Below, one piece after another: positions 32,901 through 56,395 of a stretch of DNA of 64,000 nt. The DNA comes from Antedon mediterranea (lineage: Eukaryota > Animalia > Echinodermata). The stretch lies in NCBI RefSeq assembly GCF_964355755.1, contig NC_092673.1:16526948-16590947 (forward strand). Direction: 5' to 3'. The number at the start of each line of letters is the position of its first letter. Position 1 is the stretch's first letter. The notes beneath the pieces are model-generated. The model was not told where the DNA came from. It made no database searches and saw nothing but the letters and a program-made list of their open reading frames with translations. Position numbers and translations under genes: made by a program.

Positions 32901-35900
32901 AGCAGCCATCAAGCGAGATTCGAATACCCCAAGATTCGTCTCATATCTGATGTAGGCAACTGTCCCCATAGCTTCTTTTGAGGCATCTGAGAACATTATC
33001 AACGTAGGGTTTTCGCTTTGTTTGCTTGGTTTTACACTTCGAGGTATTGACACCTTTTCGCAATTTTTAACATCCTTTAGAAAGCTGCGCCATTCGTCTA
33101 AGTCTCCCGGCTCAATTTCTTGATCCCAATCCACCTTCTTTCCCCACAAATTTCTCAGTAGTATCTTTGCTCTTACGGTCACCGGAGATAGTAACCCCAA
33201 TGGATCATATATGGAATTGGCTGCACCTAAGCATTTTCTCTTAGTCAGGCTTCCTATTTCTTCGCAGTACGTTGGTACTGGTACCTTTAGCTTATCGTCT
33301 CGGGGGTTCCATTCTAACCCTAAAAATTTGGTAGTGTCCATGTTTACACCTGAGATGGTCCATTCTTTTACATTGAAACTTCCTTTGCTCAGTATAGCGT
33401 TGATCTCTTCGGATCTCTCGTAGGCCTTTTCTACGGTCTGTAGATTATCGGCTATGTCGTCCATATACACGTTTTCCTGTAGCGTTTGTGCTGCTTCCGG
33501 AAACAGTTCTGCCGAAAGCTCTGCTGTCCTTTGTAGTGCTCTTATAGCCATAGTAGCAGATGGTCCATCTCCAAAATTCACCGCTGTGACACAATAAGTG
33601 TGAATTGGACGATCTATCTCCATATTCCTCCAAAGAAAGCGATGGGTATGCTGGTCCAACATTGAAATATCAATACTGTGGTACATTTTCTTGATATCTC
33701 CTACTAAAGCAACTTGTTCTCTTCTAAATCGAAATAGAACGGCCAACAAGTTATTGTTAACGTCTGGTCCTTTGGCCCAATATTCGTTCAGCACATGGCC
33801 CTTATAGTTTGCACTACTGTTAAAAACAATTCTTAAAGGTGTACTTTTACTGTCCGGTTTTGCTATTCCGTGATGTGATATGTAGTGAACAGGTCCTTTA
33901 TAGCTCCTCATCTCACTGTCAGATAACTTACGAGCAACTTTCCGCTGTAACATATCATCTATCTGTGAAGCATAGCACTCTGCATATTTCTCATTTTTCT
34001 GCAATCTCTTTTCGGTTGCTCTCAGTTTCGCTTCCGCAACTAATCGGTTGTCCGGTAAATCTTTAGGATCTCTGATCCATGGATATTTGGCTGTCCATTT
34101 ACCATCTGAATAACTCAAACCTTCGTCAATAAGATTCAGTTCTCTTTCTTCCTTTAGGGTAAATCGTTTTGACCCAATGGGACAATTGCCACACTTGCAA
34201 CTTCCGCACTTCGGATTGCAAGCAACTCCCATACTTTCTATATCAAGGAATTGCGAAGAAACCTGTTTTTCTATGTACGTAAGGTTGGTTGCGTTAGACT
34301 CACTCCGACACACAGGATGTTTACCAAAAACCATTACTCCAAACGTCCCTTCACATAGAGCCAATTCCCCTTCAGTCCGCAGAATGTTCGGAAATAGACT
34401 TGCATTGTCTGCTCCTATCAACAATTCTACCGCACCTGTAGGTCTCTCTATCAGATGCTTTTCCACCTTAAAGATGTCAGCTAACTTCTCAGTGTCTTGA
34501 GGGAGTAGTCTGTTTGTAATGCGTGGCATCCCAAATACTTCTATTTTAATATATCCATTATACTTCGTCTTTAGCGGCAATGTATAACTGAATGTCTCGA
34601 TTTGCTCAGTTTCACCGCCAAATTTTGTCACAGAGACTGTCAGCGGCTTTCCTTTCAACTTTAGTTTTTCAGCTACGTCTGCCAATATAACGGATGACGT
34701 ACTTGCCGTATCAAACATCGCGTTGACTTTGGTGCCCCCTTTCGTTATCACGCTCTTGGCCATTAAGATACACGGCGCGTCAGTGCCGGTACTAGTCTGT
34801 TGCGACGTTGCGGTGTTCTGAGTATTTGAAGCTGGCTCTTTTTTCGGTGGAAAATGAATTAACGGGTGATGCTTCCTACTGCATCCATCCTTTCCACAAT
34901 TTCCCAACTTACATGTTTTCACTTGATGCCCATGTTTGAGGCATCTGAAACAAACTCTTTTCTGTTTGATGACCTCTATTCGTTCTTGCATTGACATGGC
35001 CTTAAAACCTTTGCAGTCTTGCGTTTGGTGTTTAGCATTGTCATGTAAGATACAAGCAGCAATATCTGTGGGCTTCTCTGTAAATACCGTGTTGACAATG
35101 CTGCGTTGCTGTTTTGGTCTCTGATTAGTTTCGTGTAAGCTAGTCATCATATATTTCAAACTTTTGGCTTCTTCTTCTAGGTAGTCCAAAAGAATCTTCA
35201 GTTTACCGTCTTTTTCTATTTTATCCTTCGATTGAGGATCATGTATTAGTCTGACCCATCTTCTCTTTTGATCGTCGGGTAATCTACTCTCAATTTCACT
35301 TATTACTCTGGTATTGTTCATCTCGTGCTCTATTGCCATCCGCTTCAGATTTCGATGGCATGCTGAAATTAGATCTATGAACTCAACAAATTGTTTCTCT
35401 TCTCCTTCCTTTAAAGGATTTTGCTTCAGAATGTCCCCTATGAGCGCATTGACCAGCTTGTGTCTATCGCCATATTTCTCGTCTAGTAGGGTCCACATTT
35501 GCTCATAATCGTCTTCAGCTGCTTGTACAACAACTTTATTCACCTCGTTACCTAAACAAGACCGGAGTCTGAAAGGCAACTGCTCTGGATGTGTAGCCTT
35601 TTCCACAAATTTCTTAAAGTCCGTCTTAAACCTCGTGTATGTCTTTATGTCCCCATTGAATTTCGGCAACTCCATTTTCTTTAGCTCAATTTTATGTGTT
35701 TCGGTTTGTCTCATTCCGTCTTTGGAGTCCTTTTGTACCGCCTCTTCTTGATCTTTTCTATGTTTATAAAAGAGTAGTCTGATCGAGCTATGAACGTCTA
35801 TCCGTGGTAGCATCCATGCGTCTTCTTCCGCTTCTTTGTCAGCCTCAGTCAGATCTAGTATCTTCTCGTGCGCAATCTTTAAATTTTGGAATGACTCGTC

Positions 35901-37065
35901 CAACTCTTCATACAAATCTTTTAACAACTCCGGTGGATGATTTGCGTGTACCGATGTTTTCATCTCCTCTGCCTTTGTTTTAAAGCTCCGTTCTCTCCTC
36001 CGTCTGTGCCTTTTTGCATCCTCCATCTCTGTGCGTTGACAATCTTGCCAAGTGTTCGAATGTTTCGATATTCAAACTGATAAAAACTCGTGAACTCAGA
36101 TTGACTTGAATAGTGGATTTATTGTGTCCCAACTGATTATCTCAAGTAGGTTGTTCGAACCTATCAATAAAAATACAATACTATACGTAAATCCTAGAAC
36201 GTTTAACTCAGTAACAAATGTATAATCTAAGCTATTTATAATTAAAATTAAAGTTCAGCTCATGATCAAAGTGTATACGCAAACTTACACTTTTCGACAT
36301 CCAAAACTCAACTCAAATTACTCAACAGCTTGAACATTGAAATGTTAAATATCACCTAAAAAAAACACAAGAACGTTTATACATGTTAAATCATTCCGTA
36401 AAATTGTAAGCTCAAAACTAATAAAAGTAGATCAAATCAAAGTAATAAAATCTCTCCTTATCTTTCTACACTCAAAAACTTCTAACCACAAAATACCATT
36501 AATCAGGGATCAACATTCACGAGCCGAACCCCAACCTCAGCACAATAGAAACTCAAAATGATATCAATCCGCGTTATGTACTTGTACAGAACATTACTAA
36601 CATTTTACTCTTACATTAATACACGGATAGAATATAGTTCCAATAATATAATGTTCTTAAACATCTACAACTAACATGCATTACTAATACATATGCCGTA
36701 TCATTCAATCCACAACTTAGTTCAACCATAAGCTATAATGTTGATTAAGTAATTAAACATACAGTCAACTCTCTTTCAAACTTTAAGTTCACTAACTATC
36801 TATACTGTTACCGTATTTATAGACTATGATTTCGGCATTTAAATCGTTCTAATATAACTAATACTTTTATAATCACGTTTAATACAATAAAATAGATTAA
36901 CTCACCGATCGTTTCTTAAAATACTCTTAAACAACGGCGTTAATTTACTCAATTATTTCTCTTAATGTTTTCACGTTTTCTCAGAAAAGTATGCAGTCTT
37001 CTCACGTGTATTACTGTAAAACCACAACTTTGTAGAGGGCGTTAATTCCTTTCTCTAACGAAACA
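29939..37065 (-). mobile_element. Intact BEL/Pao LTR retrotransposon
   Basis: 1005-bp LTRs 29939-30943 and 36061-37065, TG..CA, no differences seen by eye; 5-bp TSD GGTAC; PPT GGTGGGGGGAG. Confidence 0.97.
31011..36026 (-). CDS. BEL/Pao Gag-Pol polyprotein (Gag zinc knuckles, protease, RT, RNase H, integrase)
   Basis: 1671-aa uninterrupted ORF: CFRCLKHGH..C..C..KHH, FDTAS, GDIKKMY, YMDD, FSDAS, D-D-E integrase (CDLFGP, TDCG, NGVTE). Confidence 0.97.
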   Translation of the reverse strand: MEDAKRHRRRRERSFKTKAEEMKTSVHANHPPELLKDLYEELDESFQNLKIAHEKILDLTEADKEAEEDAWMLPRIDVHSSIRLLFYKHRKDQEEAVQKDSKDGMRQTETHKIELKKMELPKFNGDIKTYTRFKTDFKKFVEKATHPEQLPFRLRSCLGNEVNKVVVQAAEDDYEQMWTLLDEKYGDRHKLVNALIGDILKQNPLKEGEEKQFVEFIDLISACHRNLKRMAIEHEMNNTRVISEIESRLPDDQKRRWVRLIHDPQSKDKIEKDGKLKILLDYLEEEAKSLKYMMTSLHETNQRPKQQRSIVNTVFTEKPTDIAACILHDNAKHQTQDCKGFKAMSMQERIEVIKQKRVCFRCLKHGHQVKTCKLGNCGKDGCSRKHHPLIHFPPKKEPASNTQNTATSQQTSTGTDAPCILMAKSVITKGGTKVNAMFDTASTSSVILADVAEKLKLKGKPLTVSVTKFGGETEQIETFSYTLPLKTKYNGYIKIEVFGMPRITNRLLPQDTEKLADIFKVEKHLIERPTGAVELLIGADNASLFPNILRTEGELALCEGTFGVMVFGKHPVCRSESNATNLTYIEKQVSSQFLDIESMGVACNPKCGSCKCGNCPIGSKRFTLKEERELNLIDEGLSYSDGKWTAKYPWIRDPKDLPDNRLVAEAKLRATEKRLQKNEKYAECYASQIDDMLQRKVARKLSDSEMRSYKGPVHYISHHGIAKPDSKSTPLRIVFNSSANYKGHVLNEYWAKGPDVNNNLLAVLFRFRREQVALVGDIKKMYHSIDISMLDQHTHRFLWRNMEIDRPIHTYCVTAVNFGDGPSATMAIRALQRTAELSAELFPEAAQTLQENVYMDDIADNLQTVEKAYERSEEINAILSKGSFNVKEWTISGVNMDTTKFLGLEWNPRDDKLKVPVPTYCEEIGSLTKRKCLGAANSIYDPLGLLSPVTVRAKILLRNLWGKKVDWDQEIEPGDLDEWRSFLKDVKNCEKVSIPRSVKPSKQSENPTLIMFSDASKEAMGTVAYIRYETNLGVFESRLMAAKSRVAPVRITSIVRLELSAAVMSVRLAKTIREESRIPFVRVLYLVDSEIVRSMIQKESYGFKTFAATRIGEIQQFSDSTDWFWVAGKDNIADIISRSITSKCLEENKQWFQGPEFMRNPLEQWPISQSCSVSDIPERVGVIMVADVEEVIESPINIKRFGSFDKLLKTTAMVKRIAKQKSFKSAGIDLNENDIYEAERYWIKTVQRPIRDLKIKTPVAFTNKYGSLGPMIDEDGIVVVGERIKNHVHFSYNNKLVPLLPTDHTFSKLYTEKVHKLSHSGVSATMAKVRAKYWIIRLRRIVSSVRNKCMGCRRLEGKVQEQIMGSLPIQRLKPSPPWTYVGCDLFGPFRVRGEVQKRTHGKAYGVILNCLVTRAVHLDLAVDYSEGAVQKVFRRFSAIRGYPAEVFTDCGSQLAAMHETLKKSSLEYNVKWTYSTPDAPWQNGVTESLIKGIKKALFHTVGEQVLSFEELQTVLFEISDLLNSRPIGQHPTSPEDGTYLCPNDLLLGRSDKAAPMGPWNDRGGHARRMRYMQCLIEEFWQKWTKCYFTSLIVKKKWRTECRNLKVGDVVLIQEEGIKRGKWKTGVVEEAIVSNDDRVRNVIVRSTTNTGAITRLRRAIQRLVLLLPVEES

Positions 37066-39594: not shown

Positions 39595-40428
39595 TGTGTT
39601 AGATTGTGTACATAAGGCATGTGCATTGTTAGATTGTACACATAAGGCATGTGCAGTGTTAGATTGTACACATAAGGCATGTGCATTGTTAGATTGTACA
39701 CATAAGGCATGTGTATTGTTAGATTGTACACATAAGGCATGTGCATTGTTAGATTGTACACATAAGGCAGTGTATTGTTAGATTGTGCACATAAGGCATG
39801 TGTATTGTTAGATTGTACACATAAGGCATGTGTATTGTTAGATTGTGCACATAAGGCATGTGCATTGTTAGATTGTACACATAAGGCAGTGTATTGTTAG
39901 ATTGTACACATAAGGCATGTGTATTGTTAGATTGTACACATAAGGCATGTGCATTGTTAGATTGTACACATAAGGCATGTGTATTGTTAGATTGTACACA
40001 TAAGGCATGTGCATTGTTAGATTGTACACATAAGGCATGTGCATTGTTAGATTGTACACATAAGGCATGTGTATTGTTAGATTGTGCACATAAGGCATGT
40101 GCATTGTTAGATTGTACACATAAGGCATGTGCATTGTTAGATTGTACACATAAGGCATGTGTATTGTTAGATTGTACACATAAGGCATGTGCATTGTTAG
40201 ATTGTACACATAAGGCAGTGTATTGTTAGATTGTGCACATAAGGCATGTGTATTGTTAGATTGTACACATAAGGCATGTGCATTGTTAGATTGTACACAT
40301 AAGGCATGTGTATTGTTAGATTGTACACATAAGGCATGTGTATTGTTAGATTGTACACATAAGGCATGTGTATTGTTAGATTGTGTACATAAGGCATGTG
40401 TATTGTTAGATTGTACACATAAGGCATG
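39595..40428. repeat. 30-bp satellite, about 28 copies, abutting the virus-like island
   Basis: Unit tgttagattgtacacataaggcatgtg(c/t)at. Confidence 0.95.
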
Positions 40429-40530
40429 TACCCCACCTCCACCACCACCACCACCACCATCACAGACAGTGGATGCATCGTTTGCGTTCAAAGACGACGG
40501 ATTCAATTATTGGCAAGCTACTCATCAGAA

Positions 40531-40863
40531 TTACATAATGCGATAGTTGACACTGAACCACGTTCGTTTTCCTTTCATCGAACGCTCCAGTTCATCGAAC
40601 CAATACGGTATCTGCATCTCAGCCAGTGGCGGTGGTGATGCAAGATGATCAACATTCAACGATGATGATGATGATGATGGTGGTGCTGGTGATGTAACTT
40701 TAACTGTTGCATTTCGCTGACATTTCAAGTTCTTCAAAGAAGCGCATAGACTGTCAACACTCTTAACGTATCGATCGGTGGCCATAGACACGACTCCGTT
40801 CACATCGTTCTCTACAAAGTCATCTACTCTGTACTTTTCCGAAAAGAATCTGCATACATCCAT
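40531..40863 (-). CDS. Hypothetical protein (from first plausible ATG), possibly truncated
   Basis: Part of ORF 40531..41106 not overlapped by the + ORF; head-to-head with ATG 40916. Confidence 0.35.
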   Translation of the reverse strand: MDVCRFFSEKYRVDDFVENDVNGVVSMATDRYVKSVDSLCASLKNLKCQRNATVKVTSPAPPSSSSSSLNVDHLASPPPLAEMQIPYWFDELERSMKGKRTWFSVNYRIM

Positions 40864-40915
40864 TTGCGTACATCGATTCATCACAAACACACAGGCGCAC
40901 ACACACACTTTAGAA

Positions 40916-41635
40916 ATGTCCACACTGCGTATACCCTTACTGCGATTGCCTATTTCTGACGACGACAATGATGATGATGATGATGATAATGATAATGATA
41001 CTACTTTAACAGATTCACGATTTACAGAGTTGAGTGAGAGGTACGCTAAGCTGATTAACAGTTTTAGATTGACCAGCGATGAGAACGCGAGGCTATCGAA
41101 CGTCAACCGACAGTTGAAAAGTCAACTGGAAAGTGTTAGCGACGAACGAGACGAACTTCAAAATCGACTTGAAACCGATGCACACGTTCGAGATTTGCAA
41201 GAGGATCCATCGCCCATCGAGCAGTTGGTCGAAATGTACGCCAGCGTTGTGAACGTGCCCATAACCGAATTGAGGAACGAACGTACAATCAACGGACTGT
41301 CAAGTTACTACGGCGTTGCTTTCTGGTTCCGCCTGTTGGTCGAAGAAACGTTCAATTTCCTCGATAATAAACTCAAAAAGCAACTGACAAATGAATACAA
41401 TCTAAATTGCCACAAATTTGTCACCATTGTCGTCGAAAATGGAGTGACCGGTTCGCTGTGTCAAATGATTCGACAGTTGCAATTGTTCAACTTAAACAAA
41501 AACAAACTAACCACCGAAATCAATCACAAAATAATTGCCAAGAATCTCTCTGATGAATATCAACGGTTCACCGTTCTGATTGTTCCCATCGTTGTCAAGG
41601 AGGACGCGGCTCGTCGTACACAAACGTCACTGTAA
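40916..41635 (+). CDS. Orphan protein with acidic tract and coiled coil
   Basis: First ATG of ORF 40778..41635; heptads LTSDENARLSNVNRQLKSQLESVSDERDEL. Confidence 0.65.
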   Translation: MSTLRIPLLRLPISDDDNDDDDDDNDNDTTLTDSRFTELSERYAKLINSFRLTSDENARLSNVNRQLKSQLESVSDERDELQNRLETDAHVRDLQEDPSPIEQLVEMYASVVNVPITELRNERTINGLSSYYGVAFWFRLLVEETFNFLDNKLKKQLTNEYNLNCHKFVTIVVENGVTGSLCQMIRQLQLFNLNKNKLTTEINHKIIAKNLSDEYQRFTVLIVPIVVKEDAARRTQTSL

Positions 41636-42597
41636 GAAAATACGTCAAAGTAATGCACATCGTCCACGATGCATTCATGGAACTTGACAAACGGAGGTAT
41701 GGACAGTGGAAACATCGTGGAAGCTTCTCTCGTGCACGCTTCCTTGATTTCAGGCGGCACTGCTTTTCCGTTCCATAGTACGCATTCTCTTGTCTTCCAA
41801 AGAACGATTCCTTCTACGCCCACGCGCTGTCGGTGATTATCGCCCGTGAACACTAGGTTTTGTTGCGGATCGTACAGACCGACATTGTATTCATCGTTTG
41901 AAACGTCCACGCACGGACGCCATCTCTGGAACGTTTCGCAAAATCCACTGTATTCGGCTGCATCCAACAGTATTCCAACGCTTAACAAAAGACGAACGTC
42001 CCGGCGCACAAGCATCAACGATGGAATCAAGCGTATCAATCGCAACAGTCTGTGCTCTCTATTACTACTCGGAGAAACTGTCGAATCGATTGCCAGCTTG
42101 TTGTCCAGAAACTTGTTGTACTGGAAGAAATCGTCTCGTTCTTTTTCGTTACAACACAGCGCAGTCATTTTCCATAACGGAAACATACAAGTCTGTGTTT
42201 TCACCATGTCCGAACGTGAAGCGAGTAGTTGATCTTCGTCGACAACAAGACGAGTGCGATGGCGTCGTTCCGCTTCTATCACTGTCAAAACAATGGAAAC
42301 TCCGTCATCGTACAACCGTTGGTTTTCACAGAAATTGTACACACGTGCGCCAAAGTTATGCCTACCGTCTCGAAGCTCTAACGCGATGGCAATTCGTCGA
42401 ATCTCTTTAGGCGAGCACGTTCGAAACCAAAGTTCGAATTCATACGTATCCTGTTGGCTTTGATGAAATGATGCAGTGCTAGTGATCGTTCTCGACGTAC
42501 CGCTGAAATCGGAAGCTATCAAATGCGCCTTTGTTGGAACGTGTGGCGATTTCAAACTGAGCGCAAACATAATTCCATAATTCACATAAAAAGGCAT
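41560..42597 (-). CDS. Orphan protein, 345 aa
   Basis: Long ATG-initiated ORF tiling with neighbours; no motif recognised. Confidence 0.7.
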   Translation of the reverse strand: MPFYVNYGIMFALSLKSPHVPTKAHLIASDFSGTSRTITSTASFHQSQQDTYEFELWFRTCSPKEIRRIAIALELRDGRHNFGARVYNFCENQRLYDDGVSIVLTVIEAERRHRTRLVVDEDQLLASRSDMVKTQTCMFPLWKMTALCCNEKERDDFFQYNKFLDNKLAIDSTVSPSSNREHRLLRLIRLIPSLMLVRRDVRLLLSVGILLDAAEYSGFCETFQRWRPCVDVSNDEYNVGLYDPQQNLVFTGDNHRQRVGVEGIVLWKTRECVLWNGKAVPPEIKEACTREASTMFPLSIPPFVKFHECIVDDVHYFDVFSYSDVCVRRAASSLTTMGTIRTVNR

Positions 42598-42658
42598 ACT
42601 AATAATGATTGACGTTCAGATTGCACTCTGACGACTTGTGGTTAAATTACTAAATAAA

Positions 42659-43468
42659 ATGAACAGATCAGACAAGAAAAAATTGCGTCAAAATCGTCTC
42701 TATTTTATTCGTAACATAAACAGCATTAGAGAAGTAATGGAGAAATTGGTACAGAAAGGCGTGTATTCGACCAAGAAGATGGATGCAATTTTATCTAACA
42801 CGAACGCTCGTGAACGATTGTTGATCGACATCGAAACACGAGGTAGTTTTGCGTACAATGCATTTATCGATTCTATCCATGATGGCGGATTGAACGAGTA
42901 CAAGATGACTTCAAATCCGCGCGGTTTCACAGTAATCATCAACAATTATGATGATGATGATGATGATGATGATGATTGTGCAGCGCTTGAAAATGTCTTC
43001 AATTATCTCGGCTTCCAACTGTCTGTTAATCACAATCTGACGTCCATAGAAACGAAGACGTTGCTCACACGTCTAAGTGAATACGATCACTCTAGACTAG
43101 ATTGCATTGCCGTGTGCATTCTCACTCACGGTACTGTCAATGTCACTGAAATCGTCGACTGTTTCGAAAAATGTGAAACGTTGAACGGAAAACCTAAACT
43201 CTTTTTCATACAAGCTTGTCAAGTAGACGAAACAATTGTCGTGCAGCCTCAATCGTTGCCGAGAGGCTGTGACGTATCCATTACGTATTCGACCCTGGAC
43301 CGTCAGTATAAGTTTATTCAGTCACTCTGTAAAGTGTTTCATTCGTATTCAACAAAACACGATTTAATGTCCATGTTGACTCTTGCCAACGGAACAATTA
43401 AAAGCAATCAGGTGGCCGCAACCCAGCACGGTCTTTGTAAGAAACTCTTTCTACGTCCCGTGCACTAA
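42659..43468 (+). CDS. CARD-containing caspase-like protein
   Basis: CARD (LRQNR...LLIDIETRGSFAYNAFIDSI); YKMTSNPRGFTVIINN, ILTHG, LNGKPKLFFIQACQ, FIQSLCKVF, LCKKLFL. Confidence 0.9.
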   Translation: MNRSDKKKLRQNRLYFIRNINSIREVMEKLVQKGVYSTKKMDAILSNTNARERLLIDIETRGSFAYNAFIDSIHDGGLNEYKMTSNPRGFTVIINNYDDDDDDDDDCAALENVFNYLGFQLSVNHNLTSIETKTLLTRLSEYDHSRLDCIAVCILTHGTVNVTEIVDCFEKCETLNGKPKLFFIQACQVDETIVVQPQSLPRGCDVSITYSTLDRQYKFIQSLCKVFHSYSTKHDLMSMLTLANGTIKSNQVAATQHGLCKKLFLRPVH

Positions 43469-43471
43469 AAC

Positions 43472-45712
43472 ATGCATGCCTACTTTACACGAGTGAAATA
43501 CTGCCAGAAAAAACTGACAATTCGTTGTACAGACCCGATCGGACGACGTTTGTCGCTGCAGACAAGCAATGTTGAATTCGTCGAATACGTTGAAGATGAC
43601 GTGTGCGGTGACTGTGTAATGAGCAGAGGTGACAAATACGTAGCATCGAATCGAAAATACAGAAAAGTTGTATCAAACAACAGAAAGAGAATGATAAACG
43701 CTTTCGGCAATCTTCCATCTGTCGACGACGATCTGGACGCTCAGTGTGCAGTCGGTGTACACGGATGTGCATGGCATCGATACTCGTTGAATGAGCATGG
43801 ATTCGTTTCGAACGTACACTATGATGAGCAAGTGCACTTTGAATGCGAAAAAATACATCCTGTAAAACTGTCCGTTCTCTACTTGATCATTAGATTGAAC
43901 GTATACGGACGAATCATTGCGGCACTGTCTTACGACGGTACGAGTGTTGTACAAGCAGCAACAACAGACGACAATGAACGAAGCATACTGCTTGGAATCA
44001 TAAAATCTTTCGATTCAGTTGACGTGCTCGTCTATCACGGAGAATGGGTGAGAGCGAGCATACGAGCACGATGTAAGACATTGAACGTGCCGATCGATAG
44101 CATGCCCATTTGTCTAGACACCACGAACGATGCGCGCACGTTATGTTGTGATCCAAACTCCCTGTACGAGTACGTTGGTAGACGATCCTGTTTCGAGTTG
44201 ATGGCCAGCGTATCGGACGGGGCCATGCAAGACGACGCGTCTCTTTTGCCAGAATATTGCAAACAGGTAGAATCGAAAAAATTGATTGATACACTGATGA
44301 ACGTGTCTAGACTCGTCGGAGTGTTCCCGAACGCATCGAGAACGCAGGTGCTCTCATCCCTGCTTTGCCGCGAGGCTATACGTCGACAAACTGTTTTCCC
44401 AAACACTCGTCGTAGAAAATCGACGCGAGACGTTAAAGGTGGTCTTGTACTGGAAACTGTACCCGATATTCACGAACACGTAGAAGTGTACGATTTCAAA
44501 TCCTACTATCCACGCTTTATAGTAGACAAGAATGTAGACTATTCAACAATGTGTGAGGACGGTTCTTTTGTCGATCGGAACGTACGCGAAGGTCTTTTGC
44601 CGTCTATCATGAAGAGACTGGTGTTGGGGCGAGATGCTCATCCGCAGCACGCGACTGCCTACAAACGAGCCGCCAACGAATGCATAGGGTGTCTAGTAAT
44701 TACCGGCAGTGTTCAACTGTACAACTACGTGACCTCGAAATGCAGACAGCAACTTTGTCGTCTAAAGAAATGCGCCGAAGATAACGGAGCTCGCGTTCTG
44801 TACGGAGACACGGATTCATTGTTTGTGAAACTAGCTGATGATTGTTGCAGCAGCAGAAAACGTTTGGAAGAAAGATTTGCGCAGGTTATAGGCGGCGGCG
44901 GCGGCGGCGGTGATAGCTGGCAGAAATTTGTACACAGAGAGACACTCTGTCGATTGTTATTGACCAACAAGAAGAAAAGGTACGCGTGTTTGCACGCCGA
45001 CGGGAACATCAGCACCACTGGCATGTTCACCTTAAAATGTGACGTTGAACCATTACTTACAGAACTGGATAAAAACTTTGTTGAAACTGCTCTGAAGGAA
45101 CGCGATTGCAACGCGGCCATAGATACGTGCATCGACATCATGCAAACACTTGTCTGTAAACTGAAAGACTCGCAGCAAGTAGACGAGCTAATGATGCGTA
45201 GAGTGTCCAAGAAAGAGACTAGCTCTGCCGCGTACAAGCAAATGTGCATCGCCTTTGGACTGTATCGACAAGTGCCCTACTACATCCGACATAACGGAGT
45301 GGCGTATCATCCGTTGGCTGCTGCCTGTTGCAATTCGACAGTGGACGCAACCGATCTACTAAGAGGTCTAAGAAAACGTTGTCGCATTGATACAGATTCC
45401 GTGCTGGGCGTTCTCGTTTCTTCTTCTTACAACAACAATATCATAAGTATACAAGAACGAATGGATAAGATGTACGCTATGATTGCAAACGTTCCATTGC
45501 ATCTCTCTCGCGCGAAAACATATGAGCAGCAGCAGCAGACAACAAATGTGGACTGTTGCGCTAAAGTTGTATGCACAACGAGCCAAGAAGAACGTCAGGT
45601 TAGAAAGAACGAGCACGTTTTTAGCAGCGTGCAAGAAGAAGATAAAAGAATACTGTTTATTGTACGCTGTCACGATGCCCTTTGTAAACGGGCACATGCT
45701 TTCTGCGCTTGA
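43472..45712 (+). CDS. Family B DNA polymerase, Pol alpha-like
   Basis: GGLVLE, DFKSYYP (motif A), KRAANECIGCL (B), YGDTDSLFV (C), KKKRYA; C-terminal Cys cluster. Confidence 0.9.
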   Translation: MHAYFTRVKYCQKKLTIRCTDPIGRRLSLQTSNVEFVEYVEDDVCGDCVMSRGDKYVASNRKYRKVVSNNRKRMINAFGNLPSVDDDLDAQCAVGVHGCAWHRYSLNEHGFVSNVHYDEQVHFECEKIHPVKLSVLYLIIRLNVYGRIIAALSYDGTSVVQAATTDDNERSILLGIIKSFDSVDVLVYHGEWVRASIRARCKTLNVPIDSMPICLDTTNDARTLCCDPNSLYEYVGRRSCFELMASVSDGAMQDDASLLPEYCKQVESKKLIDTLMNVSRLVGVFPNASRTQVLSSLLCREAIRRQTVFPNTRRRKSTRDVKGGLVLETVPDIHEHVEVYDFKSYYPRFIVDKNVDYSTMCEDGSFVDRNVREGLLPSIMKRLVLGRDAHPQHATAYKRAANECIGCLVITGSVQLYNYVTSKCRQQLCRLKKCAEDNGARVLYGDTDSLFVKLADDCCSSRKRLEERFAQVIGGGGGGGDSWQKFVHRETLCRLLLTNKKKRYACLHADGNISTTGMFTLKCDVEPLLTELDKNFVETALKERDCNAAIDTCIDIMQTLVCKLKDSQQVDELMMRRVSKKETSSAAYKQMCIAFGLYRQVPYYIRHNGVAYHPLAAACCNSTVDATDLLRGLRKRCRIDTDSVLGVLVSSSYNNNIISIQERMDKMYAMIANVPLHLSRAKTYEQQQQTTNVDCCAKVVCTTSQEERQVRKNEHVFSSVQEEDKRILFIVRCHDALCKRAHAFCA

Positions 45713-45783
45713 AAAAAAAATAAATAAAATTCAATAATAAATAAACAACTTGTTTGTTTTTTTTTCTTTGTGGTTTTTTATTC

Positions 45784-46920
45784 TCACAATACATTGCAAT
45801 TACACGAGTAACTTGCGTCCATGTCTTCTACACCGAGTGTAACATTGTCCAACAGTCTACGTCGGCCAATAAACGATGGTGGGTTCACGACTTCATCGCC
45901 GGTACGCAGACAACGTCTAAGTCTGTCTCGTTTGATTTTGTTCTCGTCAATACACAAATCATCACTATCATCACATTCGTTGTGCCGGCCCAAAAATAGA
46001 GAAAACACACTCTCGGTGCTTGCTCTGTCCGGTTCGTGTAACACGGTTGATTCGGTTACGCACGGAGGCAACGTGATTCCAATGGCACCTAATCGTTTCC
46101 ATACACTCGGTTGAAATATGTCGGCACTTGACGTGAACGCCGTACTGCGATCATTCACTTCTGTGAGTAATCGTAACGGACATACAAACTGCGAGAATAC
46201 TGTATCGATGTACTGACGATACTGATACCAATTTCGTAACGGATTGCGCCTATTCAACGACACGTCTGAAATGAACGCTCGAACGTCAGTGTCGGCCAAT
46301 TCGAAATCTAATACAGTCCGGTTACCGTCATCCTCCTCCTCCTCCTCCTCCTCATTCTCTTGACCAAGAAAAACCAAGTCTCGAGATCGATTGGCAAGAT
46401 CTACAAACATGTCGTTCATCGTTTGCAACGAGAAAACGGCTGTAAGAAAGTCAGCGTTTAACCATCGAATCGGTTCGTTGACTCGAGCTTTAAGAAATTT
46501 CGGCCGATTACCCGTTTGTATATCACCTCCTACGTACAATTGATCGAGACACGTCTTCAGAATGCGCGCACAATCAGACGCTTGCGAGCCCTGATTGTAC
46601 GATAAACACAAGTGTCGGAATATTCTCATGAGAAGCTCAAAGTAAGGATTGTCCGAACCGTAACGTTTACCATCAAAGTACCATTGAAACGTTGCAACAG
46701 TGTCTATAGTGTACGATCCAACGAACATTCGCCAATCGTGCATCGAGTCTAGCGTACGAAATAGATCCATAAATTGTGTAAAATCGTCTAATCTAGCCAT
46801 CCATAAACGTTCAGTTTTTTTGTCATCATCGTCTACAGTCAAAAGTTTCGACCAAGAAACGTGCACGGCAGGTGATGGAAGTCCGAGTCTCAACACACAC
46901 ACTGTCTTTAACAATTCCAT
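45784..46920 (-). CDS. Putative highly divergent eukaryotic primase small subunit (PRIM1/AEP-like)
   Basis: Colinear weak matches to PRIM1: ELLK, LDDF, YTIDTVATF, VLDFELADTDVR, IDTVF, IDEN..RTG; first ATG at 46920. Confidence 0.5.
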   Translation of the reverse strand: MELLKTVCVLRLGLPSPAVHVSWSKLLTVDDDDKKTERLWMARLDDFTQFMDLFRTLDSMHDWRMFVGSYTIDTVATFQWYFDGKRYGSDNPYFELLMRIFRHLCLSYNQGSQASDCARILKTCLDQLYVGGDIQTGNRPKFLKARVNEPIRWLNADFLTAVFSLQTMNDMFVDLANRSRDLVFLGQENEEEEEEEDDGNRTVLDFELADTDVRAFISDVSLNRRNPLRNWYQYRQYIDTVFSQFVCPLRLLTEVNDRSTAFTSSADIFQPSVWKRLGAIGITLPPCVTESTVLHEPDRASTESVFSLFLGRHNECDDSDDLCIDENKIKRDRLRRCLRTGDEVVNPPSFIGRRRLLDNVTLGVEDMDASYSCNCNVL

Positions 46921-46972
46921 AATACACACAACAACAAACAAACAAAAAAACACTGTATTACATAAACATTTA

Positions 46973-47155
46973 TTATTTATTTCTTATACACATTTTCGTA
47001 AATGTTGAAAGTAAATGTTTTTCGTGTTTGTATTCTGCTAAAATCTCTTCTACTCTACAAACTAATTGTTTGTTTACGTCAGTTTTTTGGTGAAGTTGTT
47101 CCAATACACGATACAGGTCATGCACTGGCATCTGAATACATGCTTCCAAGTTCAT
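46973..47155 (-). CDS. Small hypothetical helical protein, 60 aa
   Basis: ATG-initiated, co-oriented, fills the gap between genes, AATAAA at the stop. Confidence 0.4.
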   Translation of the reverse strand: MNLEACIQMPVHDLYRVLEQLHQKTDVNKQLVCRVEEILAEYKHEKHLLSTFTKMCIRNK

Positions 47156-47352
47156 TTTTTTTCCTAATTTTTTTTTTCTACTTCATCATAAATATCATCA
47201 TATGATTTTTTTGTTTTTATTTTGTTTTTGCATTCTTCTCTTGTAGAGTAGCGATGATCCGAGTTGTATAATGAATACGTCGTTCATGACACATTTTCCA
47301 CCACCACCACCACCACCACCACCACCACCAACAACAACAACAACGGCTTGAG

Positions 47353-48132
47353 TCATTTCAATTGATAGCGTTTTCGTTTGCTGCCAGATCGTTTACGGCA
47401 CATGTAATGGAATGCTACATTGATTTGCAACAGTTTCTGATCAGTCAACGGTTTACCGTACTGCAGTTCATGTTCCATAGACAGTCGACAGTCAACTGAA
47501 TCGAAATCGTTGATGTGTCTTAGAATTGTATCGAGAAATATGCGGCCGGTACGTTTGAGTGAATCGACCGTTTGAAATTGCGTGTTGCAACGGAGTGACG
47601 GTGAAAACAGTTGAAACTTTCGATTGCGTCCGTCTCCTCCGTCCTTGCGATCGTTTGAGATTGTAAACTTGATGGATGGGAAACGATCGTTACTGTCCAC
47701 CGACTGAGATTCGTTCAACTTGAGGCGTTCCACAACAACCGATGGATTGTCTCGAATTCCATAAATTCTTCCCGCGTGATTCAGGTTATTTGTAGACGTG
47801 TGCATCGGAACGCTCTTGAACTTTCCCCATAACAGTGTCTGATGAAATTGATAATTCAATGACGTTTTTGTTCGTACGTTGAAATTTCCTCTCGTCGTAA
47901 TGTTTGTCGAGCCGGTGGATGCAAACGACAAGGCGGTGGATCCTCGACATAACGGCGATTGAAATTCTACCATGTCGTCTTGTAATTTGGTTCCTCGCAT
48001 GTGTATGGAATGTGTCTTTTCACGTTTGTCGTACGCGTATCGATGAGCAATGTTCTGCGACGACACCACGTTCACTAGGAAGAAATTGATGGCAGCTGTT
48101 TTACACGTAGATTCGACTTGGACGTGCACCAT
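47353..48132 (-). CDS. Divergent TATA-binding-protein-like fold
   Basis: Two half-repeats: YDKREKTHSIHMR..STALSFASTGSTNIT and DRFPSIKFTI..FQLFSPS, resembling TBP YNPKRFAAVIMR..TTALIFSSGK and ELFPGLIYRM..LLIFVSG. Confidence 0.5.
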   Translation of the reverse strand: MVHVQVESTCKTAAINFFLVNVVSSQNIAHRYAYDKREKTHSIHMRGTKLQDDMVEFQSPLCRGSTALSFASTGSTNITTRGNFNVRTKTSLNYQFHQTLLWGKFKSVPMHTSTNNLNHAGRIYGIRDNPSVVVERLKLNESQSVDSNDRFPSIKFTISNDRKDGGDGRNRKFQLFSPSLRCNTQFQTVDSLKRTGRIFLDTILRHINDFDSVDCRLSMEHELQYGKPLTDQKLLQINVAFHYMCRKRSGSKRKRYQLK

Positions 48133-49739
48133 GAGTTTTCTCGTATAGGCGTGTGTATCGATTTTATTTTGTTTCCTAACATCTCTTTGAAAACCCTATC
48201 GGTGACCGTTTGCTGCTTCACTCCAAGAGGAAGAATGATTGACGAATCCTTTTCAATCTCGACAACTAAATGACCGTCTGTCGTTTGTCGATGCGTTGGA
48301 AACAATGACACCAAGAATCGACGTTCTCTGTCGTTGTAAACTCTAAACTCTACCGACGACGACGATGACGACGACGACGATGACGAAGGTTTTCGATACA
48401 GATTCAATGCTGATCGAACAAACACGACCGCTAACGTGCCGTCTGCGTTGTCAATCAACAGGTTCATATGATCAACTGTTATGTTTGCGCCACTTTCTTG
48501 AAACACCACATCTCCAACTAGCGTTTGAAAGTCTCTGTAAAACAAATGAACGACATTCTGCGCAACCATCTTCACCGATAACATGTCCATAGATTCGATG
48601 TTGGTGCGCTGTGATTGAACGTCGTTCTTCAACACTAGAAACGACTTTCTGTTCTCCGGTATTGGATTTAAATTGTCAACAAGCCGATCGATAAAACGTT
48701 CACCGAGAACACTTCGATATCGATCCAGTATAGGCAGTTCATCGGACGGCTGGCATTCCAGAGCCTTACATATGTTCATGTCAGAGTTTACGTACGTGTA
48801 CCAGTAAGCCGTTTCGAATTTTGTCATACCACCTCTTATCTTCACAAATTGTCTGCAGAGGCCGACAAGAGTGTGTAATATCTTCGACTTTTGCCCAGTG
48901 TCTCCAAGTCTTTTCATGTCTGTGTATTGCACCTCATCAAATTGTTGGCATTCGTTGTACATTGTGGCCGTCACCACGGTCATTGCGGCAGAAAACACGT
49001 CCGATTCACTATTCAGCAGTTTCACCACTCTGTCTGTCATCACGTGACTGATATCTCGATACCCTATGGACACTAGTCTTTCTACGCTGCGCACTCCTCC
49101 GAATCCAGTGTCAACGTCCATTGTGTAGATCGGCATGTCCGATGGTATGTACGCGGAGGCTATCGATTCTCCGTGAACGCATCCAACACCTCCAAATAAG
49201 CCGACCTTTTTGCTCGATTCAAATTCGATCATTTTTCGACGATGTACTTCGGCCGAACCAAAATCAATAAACTTGAATCGGCCCTGCCGTCTGTTGTACG
49301 TCACATTCCTGATGGTTATGTCGTTATGTGCGACTCCTATCTTGTCCAGAAAAGCAAGCCCCTCGCCAACATGTCGATAAAGTGTAAGCACGCACGGCAA
49401 CATTTGCATTGTCATCCGTATTGTAAACAAGTCAAAACCTTCGTTTGTCATGCGCAGACATTGAGTCACTCCTGAATCGACGACTGCCTGACATATCTGC
49501 GGCGTGTACCGTTTCAATCTGTCAAAGTAGTTTGCGTAAGCTAAAATGAAAGTTTCCTTGTTGAATGTTAAACGTACTCGTGCATCGCTGCTATTCTGAT
49601 TGCCACAATGTAATTTTTCAACTAAACCAGACTCTATCGAATGGACAACGCCAAAAGAACCTCGGCTGTTCACAGTCACCAACGGATCGATTGTATTATC
49701 CAATTTGCCAAACGATAAAATCTTTTTTTGACCGTGCAT
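48075..49739 (-). CDS. Divergent Ser/Thr protein kinase with C-terminal extension (paralog 1)
   Basis: RGSFGVV, VEK, E of helix C, HNDITIRN, DFG, SDVFS; first ATG at 49739. Confidence 0.85.
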   Translation of the reverse strand: MHGQKKILSFGKLDNTIDPLVTVNSRGSFGVVHSIESGLVEKLHCGNQNSSDARVRLTFNKETFILAYANYFDRLKRYTPQICQAVVDSGVTQCLRMTNEGFDLFTIRMTMQMLPCVLTLYRHVGEGLAFLDKIGVAHNDITIRNVTYNRRQGRFKFIDFGSAEVHRRKMIEFESSKKVGLFGGVGCVHGESIASAYIPSDMPIYTMDVDTGFGGVRSVERLVSIGYRDISHVMTDRVVKLLNSESDVFSAAMTVVTATMYNECQQFDEVQYTDMKRLGDTGQKSKILHTLVGLCRQFVKIRGGMTKFETAYWYTYVNSDMNICKALECQPSDELPILDRYRSVLGERFIDRLVDNLNPIPENRKSFLVLKNDVQSQRTNIESMDMLSVKMVAQNVVHLFYRDFQTLVGDVVFQESGANITVDHMNLLIDNADGTLAVVFVRSALNLYRKPSSSSSSSSSSSVEFRVYNDRERRFLVSLFPTHRQTTDGHLVVEIEKDSSIILPLGVKQQTVTDRVFKEMLGNKIKSIHTPIRENSWCTSKSNLRVKQLPSISS

Positions 49740-49765
49740 TGCCGTCGTGTGCGTCAATCGAATGA

Positions 49766-50998
49766 TTAAGAGAGAATGGCTTTCTGACGTTTATCTATTT
49801 TACCTCGACAAATCGGACACAACAGCAAACTGTTTGAACACGACCAGCAGGCGACCAAATGCGAACATGGAATGAAAAGAACACAAACGTCAGCGTCCAT
49901 GCATATCTTACATGTTTTTTTTTCGCGTAAATCGCGCACAACAGATTGCAAATCTTCTTCTTCCTCCACTTCTTCCTCTTCTACCACTGTTGGTTTATCG
50001 TTCACTGGAATCGTGACAGCGTTCAGAAGCTCAAGGCTAGACGTAAAGTTTCCACCGGTTCTCTTCACGTGATCGTTTACAGTAGTCGATACATGTTGCA
50101 TGTCAAAACCCATTTCTAAAACTTTCACAACGATTTCAGAGCGCATTGCAATATCAAACGGACTTTTTGACGAAATAAGAGCCGTCTCGATGAAAGGAAA
50201 ACCTTTTTCGATTCTCAACCAATTGCAGAACGGAAACCACTTTGCATGCTCGATCCAAGGATTATCGTCTAATTGCCAGTCTTTCAGTCCACCGCCGCAA
50301 TGGAAACACATTGCCTGGCTCCGATTGATTGCAAAGAATCCGGCCTCGGCTATTCCGTTCGGCGTATGATCGGTAGCCCATACTGTAGTAAACGTCATTT
50401 TTCGAACATTCAAAAGAGCGTATTGTGGATGCATTGCCCGTTGCCTATTGGTGGTGGTGGTGGTGGGGGTCGCCACGGTGGCCGCGGTGGATAACATGAA
50501 CTTACACAACGGAAAATGTTTTCTATGCTCTTCGTCGACATTCACTCCTCTTTTCCATCGCTCAAGTAAACCGTTGCAAGAGAAGCATTCGACTACGTCA
50601 CAGCATGACCTGTAATAAAATCCAGACTTTGCTAAAGTGCACGCCGATACGATGTGTCCAAATGGCCAGTTTTTAAAAGTCGACAATCTGACCATATGCG
50701 AGTTTGAGTCGACCAAATGTGTTTTACTGCCGATTAAAGGACTGCTGTTACCACATGACATCAGTTTGCACAACGGGAAGTGTTTCTTGTGCTCTGTATC
50801 GGCATCTGCTCCGGCGTTCCATCTCGAAAGTTTACCGTGACAACGGTAACATTCTACCCGGTCGTCTTGCCCCGTATAAAAGAAGCCCGACATTGCTAAC
50901 GATGTAGGCGATATCACGTGTCCCGCAATCCAAAACTCATACGTGGCCAATCGTCTTTCATAACATTCCATCGCGCCTGTATGCACTATTTTATTCAT
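49766..50998 (-). CDS. Inhibitor of apoptosis: 3 BIR + UBA-like + RING
   Basis: Three Cx2C-x16-H-x6-C BIR domains; VLEMGF UBA-like; CKICMD...PCSHLVAC..C...CPICR RING; intronless; ATG at 50998. Confidence 0.95.
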   Translation of the reverse strand: MNKIVHTGAMECYERRLATYEFWIAGHVISPTSLAMSGFFYTGQDDRVECYRCHGKLSRWNAGADADTEHKKHFPLCKLMSCGNSSPLIGSKTHLVDSNSHMVRLSTFKNWPFGHIVSACTLAKSGFYYRSCCDVVECFSCNGLLERWKRGVNVDEEHRKHFPLCKFMLSTAATVATPTTTTTNRQRAMHPQYALLNVRKMTFTTVWATDHTPNGIAEAGFFAINRSQAMCFHCGGGLKDWQLDDNPWIEHAKWFPFCNWLRIEKGFPFIETALISSKSPFDIAMRSEIVVKVLEMGFDMQHVSTTVNDHVKRTGGNFTSSLELLNAVTIPVNDKPTVVEEEEVEEEEDLQSVVRDLREKKTCKICMDADVCVLFIPCSHLVACWSCSNSLLLCPICRGKIDKRQKAILS

Positions 50999-51095
50999 TT
51001 CTGTCTGTGTGCGCGAGCGGGTGTGTGTGTGTGTGTGTGTGTGGCCCGAAGAGTATATATTATAGCAATTTGTAAATTCAGATTCACCACACACG

Positions 51096-51458
51096 ATGGA
51101 GGATTCGATCGCAAAAGAAATGAACACTGTTGTGGAAAATCTGAAATCGATATATTTTAAACAATTCTCTGATATTTTGAATACGATGATTAGAAACGGA
51201 TGCAACGGATGTATTCACGAGCATCCTTCTCAGATCGAACATGATCTATGTTTGATGGCTCCGGATAGAGAGAATATAGAACGTTTCTTTGACAACATTG
51301 TTATCGATAAAGAGGTACTGTTCATAGAATGGTGTCATCAAAATGCTGATTTTCTGGAAAGTTGCTCTAATGTCAACGCCTGGTTCGAAGTTCTATTGTC
51401 GGAAATAAAAGATAGCAACAATTTAATCGATCAAATATACCGTTATAGATTAATTTAA
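51096..51458 (+). CDS. Small protein with CxGC-HPSQ-H-C putative metal-binding motif
   Basis: ATG ORF of 120 aa containing CNGCIHEHPSQIEHDLC. Confidence 0.65.
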   Translation: MEDSIAKEMNTVVENLKSIYFKQFSDILNTMIRNGCNGCIHEHPSQIEHDLCLMAPDRENIERFFDNIVIDKEVLFIEWCHQNADFLESCSNVNAWFEVLLSEIKDSNNLIDQIYRYRLI

Positions 51459-51590
51459 TTTCTCTTGCGCCGGTATTTTCTTCGGTAGATTTGATATGAA
51501 TTTTTACTCGACATACAACTTGTAATATAGAAACAACTGAATGTATTCTCCTTCATTCATAAGCAAGTCAAACACGAGTGTAGGTGCAGA

Positions 51591-53021
51591 ATGATTTCAT
51601 CCAATGATCTGGTGAAAACGACCGCAGAGAAGGTTATGCCTAAGTCAGATGATTTGTTACAGGACGAAAACGCTTCGTTGAAGAAAAGTGTAAAATGTAT
51701 ACACCTTCTAGAACAGTTGTTGAAAGACCGTGATAAATCGTTGAACCACTTAGAGAAGACGGTAAAAAACTATAAATTATGTATTGAACATCTACAATGG
51801 CGCTTACACAAACACAACTTGGACTCATCAGTTGATTTGAAAGAACATGAAATATTCGAGCCTGGTCACGATAAACCGATTTTAATAAGCTTGTTGAATG
51901 ACGCTATACGATATAAAAGATTTCTTGACGAGAAGTTTAGCTCCGAAGAGGTAAGACGAAACTAAGTGTGAGAATATTTGTCATGAATTCGTTAAAATTA
52001 TCATAGTGGTGTGAGTGTGTGATTTATTATTATTTTTTTTTAATGTTCAGGTTGCCGAAGCAAAAGAAACCATTTCTGTTCTTGAGAAAGAAGTTAGTAA
52101 GCTGTGTGTACAGTTGAAACGGAAAGAGAACGAACTCATTGTTGTTTTAACTAAAATGAGATCCTCAGACGACGAGAAAGATGTAGTAATTAGTAAGTTA
52201 AAATGTCAGCTACGAGATTATTTTTCACAGCGTAACAATGATGACGCTGTTCGTGACACGTTGAGCTCCGAAATAAGAACATTAAAATCAAATACTGAAC
52301 AGTTTGTTGAAGAGAAAAAGAAGATAACAAATGAACTAAAAGCATATGCGCAAAGAGAGAAGGTATGGGTACAGGAAAGAAATATGTGTTTTGCTCACGC
52401 TAGAATTTTACATTCAGAATCAAAGTTCGAAGATGAATGTAAAACGTTGCAAGAACAGGTTCGAAATTTAAGTCGTGAAAATACAGATTTATGTAGGCAA
52501 TTAAAAGAGATAATTGTTATGAACACTCGCTGGCAAAAGTACTCTGAACAAAGAGAAGCACACGTTGTGCAGTTGAAACAACAATTGAAAGTATCTGAAA
52601 ACAAAGTTTTCAAGAATCATTGCCTTATTTCTGAACTTGAGCGGATGGAAAAAGAGAAACGAAAAAAAGAAATCGATACTGCTGTTCTTAGTTTGGCCAG
52701 GGAGTTGTTATTGGCAACAGATTTGGGAAAGACATGCGAATTGAATTGACTAAACACAATAACAGACTTGATGAAATAATTGGTCAATATCAAGAGACGT
52801 ATGCGTCACTTCAACAATCTTACTTACCTTCTTCTAATACTCCCGATATTCTTGAATTAGTTTGTGATGATGATGATTATGCAGCTGTAGAAGACGGTAA
52901 TTTGGATGAATTATTACAATGTCCTCGTTTTCTGAAAGAGTTTAATATCATAGAACATGTTCAGTTAGTTGATCATTTAGATACATGTGATGTTGATGAA
53001 TACAATAATTCTATCTTATAA
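51591..53021 (+). pseudogene. TNIP2(ABIN-2)/CEP55-like coiled-coil gene, one intron (51951-52050), apparent frameshift near 52700-52750
   Basis: GTAAGA..TTCAG phase-0 intron joins two ORFs; EABR-like LKEIIVMNTRWQKYSEQREAHV; C-terminal zinc-finger-like LQCPRFLKEF...HLDTC in a shifted frame. Confidence 0.7.
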
Positions 53022-53179
53022 AATCTGTGCTGTTTTTTGTTTTTATTTTTGTTTTTTTTGTTTCTTGCTAACAATCATTAATCAATAATAAAAGAAATTA
53101 ACATAATCTATAGTACGATCTATTCGATAACAATAAAGTGCATTTGGTAATCTAGACGGGTATGTATGCTTTTAATATA

Positions 53180-54685: not shown

Positions 54686-54717
<32 letters not shown>

Positions 54718-54742
54718 ATTTATTTTAAAAAAAAACCAAAAA

Positions 54743-56383: not shown

Positions 56384-56395
56384 AGCAGCAGCACA

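Follow-up and report, generated by a model that had tools for sequence, protein, structure and literature searches.

A CARD-caspase gene predicted to have lost its normal aspartate pocket borne by a probable endogenous large-DNA-virus element of the feather star Antedon mediterranea

What can a caspase do when it keeps the residues of catalysis and has lost much of the groove that should hold its substrate? The question is raised by an intron-less open reading frame (ORF) of the feather star Antedon mediterranea, which lies in a virus-like block just upstream of a DNA polymerase gene. The original prediction, made from the letters of the window (the whole stretch of 64,000 nucleotides that was analysed), described the product as a CARD-caspase that has the catalytic dyad, lacks the arginines binding the substrate aspartate, and possibly acts as a decoy. 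The ORF and its relevant neighbors are the following.

42659–43468, plus strand: intron-less ORF encoding a CARD and a caspase fold, 269 amino acids from ATG to TAA, open throughout
42659–42886, plus strand: CARD (amino acids 1–76), with helices 1–5 in the model; helix 6 and a linker of ~100 amino acids are absent
40430–58876, no strand assigned: virus-like block of intron-less ORFs with high CpG; the edges are approximate and the right edge is not fixed
41560–42597, minus strand: ORF of 345 amino acids without a family match, divergently oriented, 61 nucleotides upstream of the caspase ORF
43472–45712, plus strand: divergent family-B DNA polymerase of 746 amino acids, with the polymerase motifs kept and no exonuclease-domain match
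49766–50998, minus strand: IAP with three BIR domains, a weak UBA match, and a RING domain; a second apoptosis-control gene, 6 kb from the caspase ORF

The caspase ORF is a real, intact, derived gene. Pfam recognizes a CARD (PF00619, amino acids 7–75, E 9e-10, 38.9 bits) and a Peptidase_C14 domain (PF00656, amino acids 90–259, E 1e-20, 74.9 bits) and finds no DED; the prodomain is a CARD. Both catalytic residues are present as originally described, the histidine in THG (amino acids 156–158) and the cysteine in QACQV (amino acids 185–189). The distance of 3 nucleotides reported between the caspase stop codon and the polymerase ATG is correct for the copy in the window, while it is 2 nucleotides in runs X5, X8, and X9, the last of which (guessed to be RNA) touches just the final bases of the ORF. 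An unspliced intron or an assembly error behind the missing loops was ruled out, because the ORF is reduced in length rather than extended, and because its layout recurs in P0001, another A. mediterranea copy with 98% identity, and in one contig of X5 that covers the stretch in full. The automatic annotation of P0001 as caspase-7-like was rejected; the annotated protein starts at Met27, and part of the CARD was missed.

The residues and loops around the active site are placed as follows.

42950–42976, plus strand: (GAT)9, a poly-Asp run at the former Arg179 loop (L1), differing in length between copies
43124–43132, plus strand: THG, with the catalytic His157 and the oxyanion Gly158, by alignment
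43133–43144, plus strand: remnant of the hairpin after His-Gly, 4 residues against a median of 15
43211–43225, plus strand: QACQV, with Gln185 (equivalent of Gln283 in S1) and the catalytic Cys187, by alignment
43220–43258, plus strand: inter-subunit linker reduced to 13 residues (median of homologues, 32), with D190 as its sole Asp
43295–43312, plus strand: shortened loop L3, 6 residues against 15; the S, W, and GSW are gone and Arg215 lies inside
43394–43411, plus strand: shortened loop L4, 6 residues against 15

For the loop counts, the ORF was compared with 159 caspase domains from homology searches, after removal of two near-identical copies and of the 14 among 160 proteins in which no usable Cys motif was present. 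In-frame shortening or loss affects all five loops of the active site as well as helix 6 of the CARD and the linker of ~100 amino acids. L1, with 10 residues against a median of 17, and the hairpin after His-Gly are shorter than in any comparable homologue (as short in 0 of 151 and 0 of 156, respectively), and the lengths of the inter-subunit linker, L3, and L4 are matched in 4 of 153, 3 of 148, and 1 of 129 homologues. The original prediction had noticed neither the deletions in the hairpin, the inter-subunit linker, L4, and CARD helix 6 with its linker nor a substitution beside the catalytic cysteine, where valine stands in place of the glycine found in 147 of the 159 other domains; the QACxG motif of C14A caspases is therefore lost in the ORF, which reads QACQV. 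Among 41 highly conserved columns (at least 80%), 33 are kept, 4 are changed, and 4 are deleted.

The S1 pocket that accepts aspartate is composed of Arg179, Gln283, and Arg341, and the S2–S4 sites are lined by residues of L3 (PMC10088814, PMC2064784). In the ORF, the equivalent of Gln283 is kept as Q185. That of Arg179 is absent: amino acids 88–138 contain no Arg at all, whereas 143 of the 151 domains that can be compared have R-x-G in this loop. Four of the 159 domains also lack both arginine patterns when these are searched as regular expressions, yet their L1 has at least 13 residues. L3 reads LDRQYK between YST and FIQ (amino acids 210–221, YSTLDRQYKFIQ), and its Arg215 falls on the Arg341 column in two of four alignments (one by MAFFT and that by BLAST) and off it in the other two (phmmer and another by MAFFT), so Arg215 may be the equivalent of Arg341. 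The claim that the aspartate-binding arginines are missing thus stands for Arg179 and is ambiguous for Arg341; similarly, the small-subunit SxR..GS segment, said to be deleted, has indeed lost its motif with the contraction of L3 from 15 to 6 residues, but an arginine still sits in the loop. Because Arg179 is lost and the walls of the groove are deleted, the ORF is predicted from its sequence to lack a normal aspartate pocket and to have lost Asp-specific cleavage.

The poly-Asp run had been regarded as a replacement for the first arginine-bearing loop and had been counted as eight residues. The copy in the window has nine GAT codons, and the last Asp of the run, D106, is the conserved Asp of 99% of homologues. 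The run comprises seven residues in P0001 and six in runs X5 and X8, the latter length being deduced from a 9-nucleotide gap in a repeat bin. Triplet runs number 10 in the 18.5-kb virus-like block versus 5 in the remaining 45.5 kb, and a single-residue run of at least five is found in 8 of the 11 block ORFs checked. Given this variable length and the block-wide occurrence of triplet runs, the idea of a purposeful acidic loop was discarded, and the run is best read as slippage within a loop whose sequence no longer matters. The polymerase at 43472–45712 and its relative P0012 both give no exonuclease-domain match, and poor proofreading by the enzyme might be why triplet runs are roughly five times as frequent in the block as elsewhere in the window.

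The core caspase fold is predicted to survive these losses. An AlphaFold model built from a 64-row alignment, in which 62 of the 63 aligned rows are normal caspases, shows a caspase core of six strands and five helices and a five-helix CARD with a mean pLDDT of 88.6. It matches caspase-9 with a Z score of 24.6 and an rmsd of 2.1 over 184 residues; the matches to caspase-8, caspase-9, and c-FLIPL are tied at Z 24–25, and that to MALT1 is lower (Z 16.7 against about 25). The caspase domain did not fold in a single-sequence prediction, which is uninformative for that domain. In the alignment-based model, the deletions fall in loops, linkers, and helix 6 of the CARD and spare the core strands and helices.

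Where the gene came from can be stated with more detail. Its best nonself match among 1.84 billion representatives is P0132 (XP_071945631.1), a CARD-caspase of 462 amino acids from A. mediterranea itself, which has two annotated isoforms and the automatic name caspase-3-like and belongs to the CARD-initiator class with a caspase-9-like CARD. P0001 and P0132 are the only two of those representatives that score under 1e-30. Among 164 proteins, P0132 is the best match of the CARD alone (60 bits versus 44 for the next) and, narrowly, of the catalytic domain alone (112 versus 110 bits). In a tree of 26 CARD-caspases, P0132 is sister to the ORF with support of 99/93 under LG+G4 and 95/89 under the LG+C20 mixture model, and the pair also appears in a CARD-only tree (99/94). 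Catalytic-domain-only trees leave the ORF unplaced; a quick one took 62 rows, with 47 of the 109 eligible rows left out. In AU tests, one of four alternative placements was rejected (with P0196, p 0.019), and those with an urchin group (p 0.065), with a lamprey caspase-9 group (p 0.081), and outside the echinoderm/hemichordate set (p 0.057) were not. The two proteins share the CARD plus C14 layout and 45% identity over 248 columns in addition to their sister position, and they differ in that P0132 possesses loops of full length, helix 6 of the CARD, and long linkers, in contrast to the intron-less, pruned product of 269 amino acids. Judged from these comparisons, the ORF is most closely related to a feather-star CARD-caspase, and since P0132 keeps R-x-G, QACRG, SWR..GSW, and both S1 arginines, the losses of arginine and loops are derived. 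The original description of a derived caspase without a normal aspartate pocket is strengthened in this respect. It had also counted homologous copies that retain both arginines as contrary evidence; the near-identical copies covering the site instead share the loss, namely P0001 and run X5, for which no other letter is listed in these loops.

Has the gene been maintained since its divergence from the host caspase? The branch of the ORF is about four times as long as that of P0132 (1.04 versus 0.27, and 1.0–1.2 changes per site across models), and eight deletions relative to P0132 leave a single open frame. If each deletion is taken as one random event, the rough chance of keeping the frame is (1/3)^8. 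No stop codon or frameshift inside the ORF is listed in runs X1, X5, and X8 or seen in P0001. The in-frame character of the eight deletions, the sparing of the core, and the 33 of 41 conserved columns kept argue for selection for a folded product. Within the ORF, one X5 contig differs by 11 substitutions, of which 5 are synonymous and 6 nonsynonymous, and the resulting pN/pS of 0.32 (P 0.064, not significant) is suggestive only as a sign of constraint. The contig depth of ~900 in run X1 was not taken as copy number. The composition of the ORF, with a GC3 of 0.45 and a CpG o/e of 1.42, is like that of the neighboring genes, and the match with the block speaks for a long residence in the element. 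Constraint seems to have been uneven along the protein. Identity to P0132 is 45% in the CARD and 54% in the large subunit, compared with 34–45% and 46–54% among host–host pairs, respectively, and it falls to 34% in the small subunit versus 54–79% among host relatives; the region of the last strand, which is the dimer strand, shows 38% versus 44–88%. By this comparison of identities, the part most released from constraint is the small subunit, the carrier of Arg341 and L4. The small subunit also forms most of the dimer contact of caspases (PMC11121540).

The CARD, on the other hand, has 44–45% identity to that of P0132 and folds in a single-sequence prediction, without an alignment. It is basic, with a net charge of +6 over amino acids 1–78, and its Arg10, Arg13, and DxExRG are common to P0132 and most of the caspase-9-like rows shown. 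In caspase-9, arginines of helix 1 contact Apaf-1. The CARD model fits the caspase-9 CARD with Z 12.2 and an rmsd of 1.7 over 79 aligned residues at 27% identity, more than in any other CARD row, and the Z score is tied with those of the Apaf-1 and ARC CARDs (~12). The bundle has five helices and not six, helix 6 being missing in the alignment and in both models, and docking could be weakened by its absence.

The block around the gene is likely an endogenous large-DNA-virus element, whose family we leave open. It is 92.5% coding over 40.5–52 kb, with GC3 of 0.41–0.49 and CpG o/e of 1.3–1.4 in its ORFs, compared with 0.26 in a host-type exon, and it is flanked by retroelements, satellites, and that exon. 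Among 5.8 billion proteins, P0012 (47% identity) is the single close relative of the polymerase; the rest of the best 120 of its 262 matches are 21–34% identical. The 345-amino-acid ORF at 41560–42597 likewise has one relative, the unnamed P0287 (43% identity). No loci related to the caspase, the polymerase, or this upstream ORF were found in viral contigs, nor were any found in metagenome contigs, and protein searches that included viral contigs and the 1.84 billion representatives yielded no ortholog of the caspase from another virus. The libraries tried gave no family for 56396–58876, 45784–46920, 47353–48132, and 41560–42597, and searches of ESM Atlas, PHROGs, and PDB sequences gave no identity for the ORFs of 345, 378, 259, and 826 amino acids. 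We infer the term "virus" here, given that no capsid, terminase, or packaging gene was recognized within the window.

Several other features of the region deserve mention. Two divergent protein kinases, with motifs similar by eye, lie at 48075–49739 and 54743–56383. A coiled-coil gene at 52015–53021 consists of overlapping ORF pieces, with a weak Pfam match to the CEP55/TSG101-ALIX-binding (EABR) family and a C-terminal Cys/His motif; presumably it resembles CEP55/TNIP2-type proteins, and it is possibly another captured host regulator, broken in the copy of the window. At the left edge of the block is a tandem array of 28 copies of a 30-bp unit (39597–40429), preceded by a Bel/Pao retrotransposon with one intact ORF of 1671 amino acids (31011–36026). 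The host-type exon at ~8005–8532 (AG...GT, CpG o/e 0.26) encodes a death-effector-domain sequence and may be part of a host death-pathway gene near the insertion. On the right, an ORF at 61915–62589 gives a weak match to 2OG-Fe(II) oxygenases (AlkB-like), with its end partly duplicated at ~60247–60411, and short repeats are common to 53.5, 59.7, 60.7, and 61.4 kb, which suggest that the element continues past 59 kb. Contigs of runs X1 and X8 fit only short conserved polymerase motifs (43729–43776, 44967) and are unlike the window on both sides, and joints in runs X1, X5, and X7 link such motifs; these raise the possibility that the runs contain a further, more distantly related element.

What, then, might the protein do? 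The reading we tentatively prefer, at a probability of roughly 45%, is that it has no Asp-specific activity and serves as a CARD decoy occupying a host platform of the apoptosome type. A host mRNA would have been captured to give an intron-less CARD-caspase in the element, which would later have been pruned under selection to stay folded, with loss of the S1–S4 groove. Its five-helix basic CARD would still dock on an Apaf-1-like CARD disk and displace the host initiator caspase, and the attached caspase domain would be mainly a folded spacer, without forming a productive dimer. The decoy and the IAP might then keep infected cells alive during virus replication by delaying apoptosis. Inhibition of apoptosis by a viral CARD protein has been described (PMC4457926). 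The suggestion of a dominant negative for CARD platforms in the original prediction gains from the location of the ORF beside an IAP in a virus-like block, while its strict form, a FLIP-like heterodimer, is less well supported. Against the decoy, the His, Gly, Gln, Ala, and Cys of the active site have all been kept over 1.0–1.2 changes per site, and a pure decoy needs none of them. However, by hand arithmetic the chance that His and Cys alone survive is ~0.29 at the 54% identity of the large subunit, which makes their retention only a mild objection.

Alternatively, the ORF might encode a CARD-recruited protease with a narrowed or changed specificity, confined to self-cleavage, accepting a P1 residue other than Asp, or preferring a basic P1 with the help of the acidic run. 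This is a doubtful alternative to which we nevertheless give some weight. His-Gly and Gln-Ala-Cys have been preserved, and conservation of the large subunit equals that seen among host relatives. In clan CD, the residues for specificity lie on plastic surface loops (PMC11121540), an ascovirus caspase with a deviant QSCLG is active (PMC12655742), and an acidic S1 defines the enzymes that cut after Arg or Lys (PMC2064784). All five loops of the groove have been cut, however, two of them to lengths without precedent among the homologues, and Val replaces the Gly after Cys. The residue at the Gln283 position is Gln185, not the Asp of meta- and paracaspases, and the variable length of the Asp run fits slippage throughout the block. 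Caspases need dimers for activity, and the dimer strand region of the ORF is eroded.

Less probable is that the captured gene drifts under relaxed selection in an element prone to deletion and slippage and is functionless or has a role outside apoptosis. The roughly fourfold longer branch, the richness of the block in triplet runs together with a polymerase lacking an exonuclease-domain match, a pN/pS not significantly below 1, and the fragmented state of another host-like gene at 52.0–53.0 kb would all fit that case, and in an ascovirus a caspase-like gene that is inactive has a role outside apoptosis (PMC12655742, PMC10583209). The frame is nevertheless open after about one change per site and eight deletions, the catalytic core has been avoided by the deletions, and the copies are free of listed stops and frameshifts.

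We consider it unlikely that the protein is a FLIP-like pseudocaspase, whose caspase domain would pair with a host initiator caspase and inhibit or retune it. The whole caspase core is kept, including the final strand at E254–257; the model fits the protease-like domain of c-FLIPL (Z 23.9, rmsd 1.8 over 174 residues) as well as it fits true caspases, and cFLIPL does work by a heterodimer (PMC11121540). The small subunit and last-strand region nevertheless fall below the host range in identity, and because the subunit bearing the dimer surface is the most eroded, the CARD decoy is favored over a heterodimer. In addition, cFLIP lost catalytic residues, not loops, and uses DEDs.

Bolder, and quite improbable, is the proposal that a captured initiator caspase was rebuilt in a crinoid-infecting lineage of large DNA viruses that has yet to be described; loop deletions and a GAT microsatellite would have created an open acidic pocket and a CARD-recruited protease of Arg/Lys or otherwise new specificity, cutting host proteins at the apoptosome. 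Least probable of all, the product could be a compact enzyme with ordinary Asp specificity, comparable to the executioner caspase of an ascovirus, in which Arg215 would serve S1. In spite of the dyad, Gln185, and a possible Arg341 equivalent, L1 has no Arg, the S2–S4 walls are deleted, and the single R341K carried by mouse caspase-12 is already taken to disable that protein (PMC11121540).

Comparison with known systems sets the CARD decoy in context. Virus-encoded caspases had been called rare in the original prediction, with ascoviruses as the one example; a viral fold search has the SfAV caspase as the top match of the ORF (E 3e-12, 18% identity), and its list extends to entries from entomopoxviruses and baculoviruses and to many metacaspases of giant viruses, so the statement was too narrow. 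Such viral homologues are discussed in PMC10583209, and PMC7823800 adds nothing on viral caspases. In ascoviruses, SfAV-1a ORF073 is an active caspase and HvAV-3e ORF165 and TnAV-6a ORF072 are inactive (PMC12655742). These resemble the present ORF as caspase homologues of large DNA viruses that include degenerate forms; in the inactive ones, however, catalytic residues are missing, and TnAV-Casp2 has no CARD, whereas the ORF keeps His, Cys, and the CARD and loses loops. It appears to be a separate capture, made from an echinoderm. The 91-amino-acid GIV-CARD of grouper iridovirus, a ranavirus vCARD, is likewise a virus-encoded CARD that blocks apoptosis, but it is ICEBERG-like and consists of a CARD only, with no caspase domain (PMC4457926). 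Insect caspase-like decoys are mentioned in PMC3141678. In meta- and paracaspases, which accept a basic P1, Asp replaces Gln283 and an acidic residue replaces Arg341 (PMC2064784); the ORF keeps Q185. Among host proteins, cFLIPL and caspase-12 are similar in combining a recruitment domain and a caspase fold with impaired catalysis (PMC11121540). They differ in that they are host genes altered by point changes, with their loops at full length, and cFLIP has DEDs and acts as a heterodimer; the ORF has neither the tandem DED nor the mutated catalytic His and Cys of the FLIP type. Mouse caspase-12 has a CARD and keeps the catalytic dyad.

Both viral caspases in degenerate form and viral CARD decoys were thus already known, and neither a virus-borne CARD-caspase with pruned loops nor this element was found in the literature searched, which was mostly open-access and had supplementary tables outside its scope. 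If the decoy reading is true, the ORF would represent a viral antiapoptotic device reached by a route not met in these searches. The locus also draws attention to a large-DNA-virus-like element, as yet unclassified, in an echinoderm, and because the donor is identifiable, the ORF and P0132 form a natural pair for testing which loops folding, dimerization, and catalysis require. In the known cases, the dyad is mutated, as in cFLIP and the inactive ascovirus caspases, or a CARD alone is kept, as in the ranavirus vCARD, while the present ORF keeps both its CARD and its catalytic residues and is predicted to have lost the substrate groove.
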